This document shows, one piece after another, positions 38,206 to 39,897 of a stretch of 64,000 nt of DNA. Origin of the DNA: Dictyostelium discoideum (taxonomy: Eukaryota); the NCBI GenBank assembly GCA_000004695.1, contig CM000152.2:4448001-4512000 (forward strand), in the 5' to 3' direction. The position numbers and the translations under genes were made by a program. Numbering within the stretch: the first letter of the stretch is position 1; the number at the start of each line of letters is the position of its first letter. The notes beneath the pieces were generated by a model. The model saw only the letters and a program-made list of their open reading frames with translations. It searched no databases and had not been told where the DNA came from.

Positions 38206-39897
38206 TTAGTTTTTCTTTAAAATTTGAGAACTTGCATAAAAGATACAACCAATTAAATTTAAATTAATGATAATCTTTTGACCAAATACTGGAATGGTTG
38301 ATAACCATTCAAGTTTTGGATGATCTAAGAATTCTTCTCCTAAAAATGGTTTAATTGAACAAACCATTGCATTATTTCTAACGATATTATCACCAATTAA
38401 GAAAACTGATGCACCAAATGTACCAACACTAATTTCTCTAGCGCATCTAACAAGATATTGATAATGAATTTTCATTGTCTTTACACAACTACAATTTAAA
38501 TTCTCTGGATTTGCTGCTGCTTGACTTGCAACTATAATTAATTAATTAATTAATTTTTATTATTATTATTAGTAAATTTAATTTCAAAAAAATAAAATAA
38601 AATAAAATAAAATAAAATAAAATAAATTAATTGATTAATAAATAAATAAAATGTAATTACTTTCTGAATTATTTCTTTCTGGTTCATTTTCATGTTTCAT
38701 AATACTATAAAGTGCTTGAACACCACGACCACTAACAATATCTTCATATTCTAATGAGTAGTTGGTTCTTGTACTAGAAATAAATAGATTAAATAACAGA
38801 TAATTAGATTTGTTATATATATATATTACTATAAAGAGAAAGTTATTTAAAACACTAATAATAATAATAATAATGATACTTTACATTTCCTTTTCTTTAA
38901 TAATGTTTTGTAATTTTTTGAATAATTCTTGTTCACAATCATTAGTATCTGAACAAATGCTAATATGACCAAACTCTGATGGAATAACTTTATATTGATC
39001 ACCAAATTTAGTGATTAAACCTACACCTAAACCAGTACCTGCTGCTAAAACTGGGTCTAAAAATTATAATAAAAATTAAAAATAATTGTAATTATATTAG
39101 TATATATATGTATAATTATACACATTGTAGTATATACTACAAAATAAAAATAATCAAAACTTACAAACACAATTATCTGGTTGTCTTAATGGACCTGTTT
39201 GTTGAACGATAGTTGAGAAAATTGAATCTAAACCACCTTCAGACCTCATGAATGGGATGATACCATAAGCACCACTTTCAAGATCATTTAAAACTGCAAA
39301 TTTACCTGGTGGACAAAGTTTGCTTGGTAATTTCTCTGTGTAAAGGAAATTATCAGATTCAATATAGTTGGTTAATTTATACTAATTTATTAATTTATTA
39401 ATTTAAAAATAATAAAAAATAAAAAATAAAAAAAAGTATTAGAATTACATTTACAATAATATATTAAAAAAAAAAAAAAAAAAAAAAATTATATAAATTT
39501 ATAATTACTTTATTTTTTGAAAGATGTGGACCAGCAAGATCGATACAACAGAATTCTGGTTCGATAAAATTACCTAAACATTCATTTTGAATAATTGTTA
39601 ATTCTTCAATGAGTTTTGTGATATTACTGCATAAGAATTCTTTGATTGTATAATAATCACCATTTTCTGTTGCATATACTACTCTTGTATTTGTACCACC
39701 AATATCAATACCAATAAAATATTGCTAAAATTATATTAAATTAAAAAATAAAAAAATAAAAAATAAAGTTAATAAATGATTTATTTACTTTATTTTTTTA
39801 TTTTTTATTTTTTATTTTTTATTTTTAGTATACTTACAGAGTCTGTTTTTTGTTCTTCAATAAGTTTTGAGTAGTCTCCTAATACTTTATAAACCAT
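38206..39897 (-). CDS. Bacterial-type glucokinase (Glk family, ATP:D-glucose 6-phosphotransferase). Six exons at about 39838-39897, 39509-39724, 39165-39381, 38885-39056, 38661-38773 and 38206-38531, giving about 367 aa.
   Basis: Hand-spliced, the protein aligns along its full length with E. coli Glk. QYFIGIDIGGTNTRVV matches YALVGDVGGTNARLAL. LNDLESGAYGII matches INDFTAVSMAI. LAAGTGLGVGLITKFGDQYKVIPSEFGHISI matches [47 protein letters not shown] matches AERVLSGPGLVNLYRAI. ISVGTFGASVFLIGDNIVRN matches LNLGTFGGVFIAGGIVPRF. All five introns are GT..AG, AT-rich and phase-consistent (GTAAGT, GTAATT, GTAAGT, GTAAAG, GTAATT). Confidence 0.8.

Follow-up and report, generated by a model that had tools for sequence, protein, structure and literature searches.

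The window, the 64,000-nucleotide stretch of Dictyostelium discoideum DNA analyzed here, carries a gene resembling bacterial glucokinases on its minus strand (39897..38206); this raises the question of what enzyme it encodes and whether it was acquired from a bacterium. A first-pass annotation had regarded it as a Glk-family glucokinase and as a candidate for ancient horizontal acquisition. The reading we consider highly probable is that it is the nuclear gene for the ATP-dependent glucokinase of D. discoideum (EC 2.7.1.2, DDB_G0281523), a member of a eukaryote-specific Glk subfamily that was vertically inherited in Amoebozoa. The gene is already known and annotated and is not a new finding. 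Protist glucokinases of the Glk type have an ample literature: relatives of this enzyme from pathogenic amoebae and from trypanosomes were crystallized as drug targets, and an affinity of such protist enzymes with bacteria has been under discussion since 2001. The result matters little beyond good book-keeping; its modest points are that the enzyme falls in a coherent eukaryote-specific Glk subfamily with recognizable sequence signatures, and that introns at positions common to Dictyostelium and Pelomyxa date the gene.

Gene model and its conservation

The splice model consists of six exons and five introns, and both its coordinates and its intact spliced frame agree with the six-exon gene proposed in the first-pass annotation. 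All features are read on the minus strand. Translation starts with the ATG at 39897 in exon 1 (39838..39897), which encodes residues 1–20 (MVYKVLGDYSKLIEEQKTDS) and is followed by intron 1 (39725..39837; 113 nt, phase 0, GTAAGT..TTTTAG, GC 6%). Exon 2 (39509..39724) encodes residues 21–92 with the phosphate-1 motif DIGGTN, and is separated by intron 2 (39382..39508; 127 nt, phase 0, GTAATT..AATTAG, GC 5%) from exon 3 (39165..39381), which covers residues 93–165 in part and carries N124 and D125. Beyond intron 3 (39057..39164; 108 nt, phase 1, GTAAGT..TTTTAG, GC 12%), exon 4 (38885..39056) holds the AAGTGLG motif together with E192 and H195. Intron 4 (38774..38884; 111 nt, phase 2, GTAAAG..TTCTAG, GC 14%) precedes exon 5 (38661..38773), which carries E232, and intron 5 (38532..38660; 129 nt, phase 1, GTAATT..TTATAG, GC 5%) precedes exon 6 (38206..38531). 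The last exon encodes the C-terminal helical part with the signatures L-I-G-D-N-I-V-R-N and N-L-N-L-I-G, ends in ..ILKKN and is closed by the TAA stop at 38208-38206. As had been noted beforehand, all five introns are AT-rich and of GT..AG type (108–129 nt; phases 0,0,1,2,1), with a GC content of 5–14% against 27–33% in the exons. The spliced coding sequence of 1104 nt gives the 367-residue protein that had been predicted; the chance of 368 open codons at this base composition is ~6e-16. All 367 residues match the D. discoideum AX4 protein XP_640672.1 (EAL66743.1, UniProt Q54TY9) with no difference, which identifies the gene in the window as the DDB_G0281523 locus. This product is named "hypothetical protein" by NCBI and "Glucokinase", by homology, by UniProt.

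Comparison with D. firmibasis gave exons that were 88–95% identical with no gaps, against introns that were 39–72% identical with 8–92 gap columns, so that the exon model has comparative support at the sequence level. The short exon 1 was 93% identical and free of gaps in this species; D. purpureum and T. lacteum preserve its peptide as well. Sixty of the 100 differences between the two coding sequences fell at the third codon position, and a dN/dS of 0.19 was obtained; the gene is under purifying selection. Orthologues were found in six Dictyostelium genomes, each encoding 367 residues. Codon usage was characterized by a GC3 of 0.139 and by relative synonymous codon usage (RSCU) that correlated with that of the neighboring genes at r = 0.955, versus r = −0.10 with E. 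coli glk, which bears out the host-like usage described earlier.

Family, fold and predicted function

The protein matched the Pfam glucokinase family PF02685 with 85.8 bits (cut-off 22.1), its residues 27–341 covering positions 4–294 of the 314-position profile. The Glk-family assignment is thus upheld, as are the three motifs on which it had been based: the phosphate-binding loops DIGGTN (27–32) and AAGTGLG (169–175), and VGTFGASVFLIGDN at residues 294–308. Residues N99, D100, E157, H160 and E187 of E. coli Glk correspond to N124, D125, E192, H195 and E232 of the Dictyostelium protein; N99, D100, H160 and E187 are glucose-binding or catalytic residues of the E. coli enzyme (PMC13133996). D27, G29, T31, N124, D125, T172, G173 and E192 were invariant in a 19-sequence alignment including E. 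coli Glk, in which H195 and E232 each differed in a single sequence. Hexokinases (PF00349/PF03727) and ROK glucokinases (PF00480) catalyze the same net reaction and resemble Glk distantly in having the ASKHA superfold. No hexokinase match was found in Pfam or among the PDB sequence matches at E ≤ 1, nor among the top 50 Foldseek matches, in keeping with the earlier remark that the protein does not align with hexokinases. The ROK profile stayed below its threshold (E = 0.11; 12.4 bits, cut-off 22.9), and a search of the protein for the zinc motif of ROK kinases, CxCGxxGCxE, found none. The best matches, whose location in ROK or hexokinase families had been named as the outcome that would overturn the assignment, lie in PF02685.

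With the equivalog models that NCBIfam provides for bacterial glk (TIGR00749 / PRK00292), the scores were far below the cut-offs, the best among them being 72.3 vs 333 bits and 59.8 vs 225.45 bits, which indicates that the Dictyostelium protein has clearly diverged from the bacterial enzyme. Judged by these models, it is outside the bacterial glk orthologue group in the narrow sense. The end-to-end alignment with E. coli Glk claimed at first holds at the level of profile and fold, but not by BLASTP, which gave a partial alignment of 23% identity (Dictyostelium 20–311, E. coli 2–267); the PDB sequence search found E. coli Glk with E = 0.002 over residues 158–309.

The AlphaFold model (pLDDT 92.3, pTM 0.90) is predicted to adopt the two-domain Glk fold. 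The best solved relatives by PDB sequence search were 8dtc (2e-46), 6vzz (3e-40) and 6da0 (7e-39), followed by the T. cruzi enzyme (~1e-19). The top Foldseek matches were the glucokinases of Acanthamoeba, Balamuthia, Naegleria, T. cruzi and L. braziliensis (TM 0.78–0.83), next to which came E. coli Glk (TM 0.81, target-normalized) and then ROK kinases; the 17 best PDB matches were all Glk-type glucokinases, with query-normalized TM values of 0.66–0.83. The enzymes of Acanthamoeba castellanii (8DTC), Balamuthia mandrillaris (6VZZ) and Naegleria fowleri (6DA0) share ~30–31% identity with the Dictyostelium enzyme in the Foldseek alignment (TM 0.79–0.83) and are collinear with it over the full length, while being ~10–80 residues longer owing to N-terminal extensions and small insertions. 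Those of Acanthamoeba and Balamuthia carry the G-D-N and N-x-N-L-x-G signatures, as the Dictyostelium enzyme does; in that of Naegleria, G-D-N is kept and the second motif takes the form N-x-N-V. The Trypanosoma cruzi and Leishmania glucokinases (2Q2R, 5BRD, 6EDI) have the same fold (TM ~0.8) at an identity of merely ~25%, and the T. grayi enzyme bears the same subfamily signature (VGDNIVKN / NLNLIG). E. coli Glk (b2388; 1Q18/1SZ2) is of the same Pfam family and fold, and it, too, has the DxGGTN and GTGLG loops as well as the glucose-binding N-D, E..H and E residues. The bacterial enzyme is, however, ~45 residues shorter, has A-G-G-I where Dictyostelium has G-D-N, and is devoid of N-L-N-L-x-G.

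These likenesses suggest how the enzyme would work. The protein is expected to be an actin-like ATPase (ASKHA) sugar kinase whose two domains would shut over glucose, with the ATP phosphates held by the DIGGTN and AAGTGLG loops. The hydroxyls of glucose would be bound by N124, D125, E192, H195 and E232, of which D125 is the likely catalytic base, and transfer of the γ-phosphate to O6 would yield glucose-6-phosphate for glycolysis and for the metabolism of glycogen or trehalose. From this conservation we infer both the ATP-dependent phosphorylation of glucose by DDB_G0281523 and its substrate specificity. The trypanosomatid enzyme is glycosomal (PMC9512073) and has a C-terminal PTS1 (..ASKL in T. 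grayi), whereas the ..ILKKN terminus of the Dictyostelium enzyme has no PTS1-like signal. A peroxisomal location was rejected on these grounds, and the enzyme is probably cytosolic. A literature search by the gene ID DDB_G0281523 found no paper among those available. A glucokinase of the organism was reportedly described in an old biochemical report (Baumann 1969, "Glucokinase of Dictyostelium discoideum").

That gene prediction produced an artefact here, or that the gene is a pseudogene, has a practically nil chance of being correct: the NCBI product name, merely "hypothetical protein", would suit such a view, but the frame is intact, the low dN/dS and the contrast between indel-free exons and indel-rich introns speak for a working gene, exon 1 is conserved along with the constant 367-residue length of the orthologues in the six Dictyostelium genomes, and the fold is predicted with high confidence along the whole length. 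It is somewhat easier to imagine, yet still improbable, that the protein phosphorylates another sugar, such as glucosamine, mannose or an N-acetylhexosamine, and is called a glucokinase by homology only. Sugar kinases with the ASKHA fold have many different specificities, and N-acetylhexosamine kinases of the ROK family are the next-best structural matches; nevertheless, the protein has kept each of the five residues by which E. coli Glk contacts glucose, the nearest solved structures (8dtc, 6vzz, 2q2r) are glucokinases crystallized with glucose, and both the ROK zinc motif and an above-threshold ROK profile match are absent. A glucokinase remains our preferred reading.

A eukaryote-type subfamily, its introns and its origin

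The first-pass annotation had proposed a phylogeny as a check of the Glk placement. This was run by neighbor joining (NJ) on corrected p-distances of 154 sequences with bootstrapping; the placement was upheld, and the gene fell among eukaryotic Glk sequences. A eukaryote-type clade of 107 cluster representatives, ~12 of which are tied to named eukaryotes and most of which are environmental sequences, received a bootstrap of 96.5%, and its grouping with a prokaryotic sister received 80.5%. The named members were all eukaryotes belonging to Amoebozoa, Euglenozoa, a parabasalid and a malawimonad, and comprised Dictyostelia (bootstrap 83.5%), Acanthamoeba, Trypanosoma grayi, Pelomyxa, Gefionella, Namystynia, Histomonas and an unclassified eukaryote. 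Two genes of clade members adjoin typical eukaryotic genes (gelsolin/villin and IFT57), and members of the sister clade lie on dense contigs with prokaryotic gene organization. Of ten sister-clade proteins, one is from a named Coriobacteriales metagenome-assembled genome (MAG), and the genes around two others are organized in a typically bacterial way. Relationships within the eukaryote clade were poorly resolved, and neither Amoebozoa nor other supergroups formed clean clades.

The C-terminal signatures IGDNIVRN and NLNLIG of D. discoideum exemplify a pattern, G-D-N-x-V-x-N plus N-[LFI]-N-[LIV]-x-G, that was found in most members of the eukaryote clade, where bacterial-type sequences have G-G-[IV] instead; this signature is defined from our own alignment and is not a published criterion. 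Judged by tree and signature, the Dictyostelium enzyme belongs to a eukaryote-type Glk subfamily that includes the amoeba and kinetoplastid glucokinases. Its named members are from Amoebozoa and Euglenozoa (both kinetoplastids and diplonemids), together with one parabasalid and one malawimonad; the structure from Naegleria (Heterolobosea) is among the closest. A pattern scan of prokaryotic genomes, based on a 9-sequence alignment, gave at least 9 loci, from Thermoplasmatales MAGs and Bacteroidales. The Thermoplasmatales proteins among the matches listed are of the A-G-G-I-A-A-K-N type, like sequence P0035, and lie outside the sister clade.

The intron positions bear on the age of the gene. Four of the five are identical across Dictyostelia. 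In D. purpureum, D. firmibasis, Cavenderia and Acytostelium, intron 1 falls in the same alignment column with the same phase, and a Pelomyxa intron lies within 2 columns of it. Each of the six dictyostelids compared, and Pelomyxa schiedti as well, has intron 2 at the identical position; introns 3 and 5 share column and phase among Dictyostelium spp., Cavenderia, Acytostelium and Pelomyxa. Intron 4 is found, among dictyostelids, solely in D. discoideum, D. firmibasis and D. purpureum, with a phase-2 intron of Pelomyxa one alignment column away. Pelomyxa, whose intron positions are taken from a computational gene model with one 108-nt intron counted as single, therefore has three introns identical in column and phase and two more within 1–2 columns; the probability of three exact matches by chance is ~2.5e-6. 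Such sharing indicates that the gene is older than the split between Dictyostelia and Archamoebae, and the amoebozoan lineage would have inherited it vertically since before that divergence. The introns shared with Pelomyxa date the gene and argue against a horizontal transfer into Dictyostelium.

The suggestion of an ancient horizontal acquisition was accordingly retained only in part. As an acquisition by Dictyostelium it fails, because the gene lies in the eukaryote-type clade and shares intron positions with Pelomyxa; a test for horizontal acquisition, which would call for nesting inside a bacterial clade and for a lack of orthologues in related eukaryotes, was negative, orthologues being present across Dictyostelia, Acanthamoeba, Balamuthia and Pelomyxa and the gene branching among eukaryotes. 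The nearest non-eukaryotic relatives are prokaryotic, and those with checkable genomic context are bacterial, which makes it plausible that the eukaryotic subfamily as a whole came from bacteria very long ago, in an event not specific to Dictyostelium. This bacterial-looking ancestry may go back to a horizontal or an endosymbiotic transfer, or to a gene that early eukaryotes already had; if there was a transfer, its date and direction are inferred.

Two other histories were weighed against vertical inheritance in Amoebozoa. A fairly recent, lineage-specific transfer of a bacterial glk into Dictyostelium, which later received introns and host codons, might be suspected from the predominantly prokaryotic nature of the Glk family and from the Pfam and NCBIfam models, built mostly on bacterial glucokinases. 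Its chance is very slight, and it is effectively refuted on present evidence: the best bacterial-type matches share ~22–29% identity at E > 1e-14, while those from other eukaryotes reach E = 1e-40 to 1e-48, every named member of the well-supported clade is eukaryotic, orthologues with common introns occur in all sampled dictyostelid groups, three intron positions recur identically in Pelomyxa, the codons are used entirely as in the host, and synteny has been kept. A more serious competitor, to which we grant a real though minority share, is a gene acquired once from a bacterium that was absent from any common ancestor of all these groups and then spread from eukaryote to eukaryote, with Amoebozoa as recipient or donor. 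The patchy distribution of Glk agrees with it, since Naegleria, Willaertia, diplomonads and parabasalids use glucokinase instead of the hexokinase of most eukaryotes (PMC1665464, PMC7729029, PMC7285305), and so does the NJ tree, in which the lack of a monophyletic Amoebozoa makes transfers between eukaryotes possible. Poor resolution may, however, merely reflect weak signal and the method used, no particular donor–recipient pair is supported, and the introns common to Dictyostelium and Pelomyxa argue for vertical descent within Amoebozoa. Alongside this vertical descent, we tentatively entertain a deeper history, doubtful as it is, in which eukaryote-type Glk was gained from a bacterium a single time, ahead of the divergence of Amoebozoa, Discoba, Metamonada and malawimonads, and hexokinase later took its place in most lineages. 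If this were true, a Glk-type enzyme would have stood beside hexokinase in the early eukaryotic glycolytic toolkit, and the Dictyostelium–Pelomyxa introns would be the first positional trace of Glk antiquity.

Genomic neighborhood

The glucokinase gene is divergent from an SRF-type MADS-box gene on the plus strand (46019..47272; 418 residues; Pfam SRF-TF E = 2e-21), which is genomic context and has its MADS domain at residues 76–123. D. discoideum has just two SRF-type genes, and SrfB is a protein of 467 residues with its MADS box at 38–118 (PMC3640940, PMC3819988). The length and domain position of the neighbor exclude SrfB, so it is srfA by elimination, in agreement with the divergent arrangement that had been described. 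The two start codons are separated by an AT-rich spacer of 6.1 kb (39898..46018; GC 11–17%). Alternative promoters are known for srfA (PMC3640940, citing Escalante et al. 2001). In D. firmibasis, too, the gene is divergent from srfA, across a spacer of 5.4 kb; low-complexity A/T matches were abundant in the blastn comparison of the spacers, and long collinear blocks alone were used. In D. purpureum, the synteny of the glucokinase gene with an AAA+bromodomain gene is kept.

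Structure and identity of the glucokinase gene

The window is very AT-rich (GC 11–39% in 1-kb bins), and six open segments on its minus strand, from 39897 to 38206, were joined through five GT..AG introns into a 1104-nt reading frame. The splice model places exons 1 to 6 at 39897-39838, 39724-39509, 39381-39165, 39056-38885, 38773-38661, and 38531-38206 (all minus strand), separated by introns of 113, 127, 108, 111, and 129 nt in phases 0, 0, 1, 2, and 1, respectively. GC content was 27–33% for the exons versus 5–14% for the introns. As a stop codon is expected every ~11 codons at the base composition of the window, an open frame of 368 codons would arise by chance with a probability of ~6e-16. 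An exact-sequence look-up identified the 367-aa product as D. discoideum AX4 DDB_G0281523 (EAL66743.1 / XP_640672.1; UniProt Q54TY9, "Glucokinase"), and orthologues of 367 aa were present in other D. discoideum, D. citrinum, and D. firmibasis assemblies. The six-exon, five-intron gene of the first-pass annotation, whose product had the same length, matches this entry; the gene is already annotated and the finding already known.

The annotated proteins of the orthologues were mapped back to their genomic loci for exon/intron comparison. Between D. discoideum and D. firmibasis, whose glucokinase proteins are 90% identical, all six exons are equal in length and gapless (88–95% nucleotide identity), and all five introns are unequal in length (8–92 gap columns, 39–72% identity). 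The third codon position holds 60 of the 100 CDS differences, and dN/dS was evaluated at 0.19 (Nei-Gojobori). Judged at the sequence level, this divergence pattern is the one seen in spliced, functional genes subject to purifying selection. Codon usage was indistinguishable from that of the neighbouring genes, with a GC3 of 0.139 (neighbours 0.11–0.28) and an RSCU correlation with them of r = 0.955, compared with r = -0.10 for E. coli glk. Together with the five introns, this bears out the earlier description of the gene as domesticated.

Family, fold, and predicted function

The sole significant Pfam family was Glucokinase (PF02685, 85.8 bits, cut-off 22.1, residues 27–341); hexokinase was not matched in this search and ROK reached E = 0.11 only, in agreement with the proposed Glk-family membership. 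The bacterial glk equivalogs of NCBIfam were matched far under their cut-offs (best 72 vs 333 bits). A PDB sequence search gave 8dtc (E = 2e-46), 6vzz (3e-40), and 6da0 (7e-39) as top matches, followed by T. cruzi glucokinases (~1e-19) and L. braziliensis 6edi (8e-11); E. coli Glk appeared at E = 0.002 only, over residues 158–309. BLASTP against E. coli K-12 Glk (from NC_000913.3) aligned D. discoideum residues 20–311 with E. coli residues 2–267 at 23% identity. A confident AlphaFold model built from a 39-sequence alignment (pLDDT 92.3, pTM 0.90) was ranked by Foldseek closest to the Acanthamoeba castellanii, Balamuthia mandrillaris, and Naegleria fowleri glucokinases (TM 0.79–0.83), then to those of T. 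cruzi and L. braziliensis, then to bacterial Glk (E. coli 1sz2, target-normalised TM 0.81), and then to ROK kinases, with hexokinase absent among the best 50 matches. Since the sequence matches to E. coli Glk are partial and weak, the end-to-end alignment claimed for the two proteins is valid at the profile and fold level only and does not extend to BLASTP.

The glucose-binding residues of E. coli Glk, Asn99, Asp100, His160, and Glu187 (PMC13133996), correspond to N124, D125, H195, and E232, and Glu157 to E192. Phosphate loops were located at 27–32 (DIGGTN) and 169–175 (AAGTGLG). Among 19 eukaryotic, bacterial, and environmental sequences, D27, G29, T31, N124, D125, T172, G173, and E192 were invariant, and H195 and E232 had one deviating sequence each. 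The ROK zinc motif was not found in the protein. Its C-terminus (..ILKKN) has no PTS1, whereas the T. grayi enzyme ends with ..ASKL. The product would most likely act as a cytosolic ATP:glucose 6-phosphotransferase, of which we infer both the specificity and the location.

Glucokinase in place of hexokinase is described for diplomonads and parabasalids (PMC1665464, with reference to Henze 2001 and Wu 2001). The glucokinase of Naegleria, which has no hexokinase, closely resembles the trypanosomatid enzyme (PMC7729029), and Willaertia expresses glucokinase without hexokinase (PMC7285305). A glycosomal GlcK with PTS1 was reported for kinetoplastids and diplonemids (PMC9512073), and drug-target crystal structures for the Naegleria and Balamuthia enzymes (PMC8569187). 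Developmental work on Dictyostelium treats glucokinase as a regulator of glucose levels (PMC3341216).

Phylogenetic placement and age of the gene

In a word-indexed search, every dictyostelid group yielded orthologues, at 67% identity in D. purpureum, 49% in Tieghemostelium, and 40% each in Acytostelium and Cavenderia. Acanthamoeba, T. grayi, and numerous short environmental contigs were also matched; proteins of bacterial length were matched only at E > 1e-10. At thresholds of E <= 1e-3 and E <= 1e-10, an exhaustive HMMER search returned 792 and 171 cluster representatives, respectively. In a 161-sequence alignment, the better matches have the motifs G-D-N-x-V-x-N and N-[LFI]-N-[LIV]-x-G in common, while in bacterial-type sequences, E. 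coli among them, the first is replaced by G-G-[IV] and the second is absent. A neighbour-joining tree (154 sequences, 331 columns, rooted on E. coli Glk, 200 bootstrap replicates) united the motif-bearing sequences into one clade of 107 representatives (bootstrap 96.5%), within which Dictyostelia received 83.5% and supergroups were not resolved. Its named members are all eukaryotes, namely Pelomyxa schiedti, Gefionella okellyi, Namystynia karyoxenos, Histomonas meleagridis, "Eukaryota sp. TZLM3-RCL", Acanthamoeba, T. grayi, and the dictyostelids. The genes of two of these named members adjoin gelsolin/villin and IFT57 genes, and are therefore not bacterial contaminants. The sister group (80.5% for the joint clade) comprises 15 prokaryotic members, one of which is a Coriobacteriales MAG; two others have densely packed, operon-like surroundings, with TolC/RND/MacB efflux genes in one case and GntR and pyrK-pyrD-pyrF genes in the other.

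Introns 1, 2, 3, and 5 coincide in alignment column and phase among the dictyostelids D. discoideum, D. firmibasis, D. purpureum, Cavenderia fasciculata, and Acytostelium subglobosum. Within dictyostelids, intron 4 is confined to the three Dictyostelium species, and Tieghemostelium has introns 1 and 2 only, the former three columns off its position in other species. The Pelomyxa schiedti gene contains seven introns, of which three match Dictyostelium introns 2, 3, and 5 exactly in column and phase (chance of three exact coincidences in five, ~2.5e-6) and two more lie 1–2 columns from introns 1 and 4. The three exact matches indicate that the gene, with introns, was already present before Dictyostelia and Archamoebae diverged, so that a transfer specific to Dictyostelium is ruled out. 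The horizontal acquisition suggested at first pass has only partial support. The glucokinase has long resided in Amoebozoa, as part of a eukaryote-specific Glk subfamily with a bacterial nearest outgroup. This subfamily may derive from a single, very ancient acquisition from bacteria with subsequent losses, or may also have moved between eukaryotes.

Two unrelated compact intronless contigs (L017 13-1644 and L018 3031-5224; NCBI GCA_006365135.1 and an ENA metagenome) carry a eukaryote-type (G-D-N) glucokinase directly adjoining an RNase PH gene, which suggests that this linkage is conserved in some group of organisms. Glk-family proteins of 357–402 aa are also encoded by MAGs of uncultured Thermoplasmatales, which are archaea (L007 1596-2804, L008 1944-3017); these proteins were the best prokaryotic tblastn matches to the Dictyostelium protein among those listed (25% identity, E = 1e-17), but bear the bacterial-type A-G-G-I-A-A-K-N motif.

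The srfA side and other genes of the window

Upstream of the glucokinase, 6.1 kb of DNA with a GC of 11–17% extends to an SRF-type MADS gene of 418 aa that starts at 46019 on the plus strand (Pfam SRF-TF, E = 2e-21). D. discoideum has only two SRF-type genes, and in SrfB, a protein of 467 aa, the MADS box occupies residues 38–118 (PMC3640940, PMC3819988); as these features differ, the gene at 46019 is srfA, and the divergent position noted earlier is confirmed. D. firmibasis has the same arrangement with a 5.4-kb spacer. Transcription of srfA from alternative promoters (PMC3640940, citing Escalante et al. 2001) fits the long upstream region. A collinear match of ~76% identity (D. discoideum 44777-46018, D. 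firmibasis locus L006 2562-3582) runs through srfA and extends ~1.2 kb beyond its ATG on the upstream side. For this genome, such non-coding DNA is unusually well conserved, and it may contain srfA 5' exons or promoter elements.

Downstream of the glucokinase lies an AAA+bromodomain (ATAD2-like) gene on the minus strand (main ORF 36471..32311); in D. purpureum, too, this gene comes next after the glucokinase (L002 3601 onward). An exon at 37828..36452 (minus strand), immediately downstream of the glucokinase, probably encodes the N-terminus of the AAA+bromodomain protein and contains a long (ATT)n tract (37657-37742) translated into a poly-asparagine run. The window further holds a Cid1/TUTase-like poly(A) polymerase in two open segments (29168-31168 and 31188-32033, plus strand), a ribosomal protein L17 homologue (49692-50240, plus strand), and an SNF2-family helicase of 1655 aa that contains long poly-Asn runs (54258-59222, minus strand). 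Two tRNA-Leu(UAA) genes of equal length and Rfam score (49.1 bits) lie in opposite orientations near both window ends (10032-10114, plus strand; 63889-63971, minus strand). A class II (Asp/Lys/Asn-type) aminoacyl-tRNA synthetase ORF (50700-52316, minus strand) is the GC-richest stretch of the window (GC 0.39, GC3 0.275) and its codon usage agrees least with that of the other genes (r = 0.76), as would be consistent with high expression.
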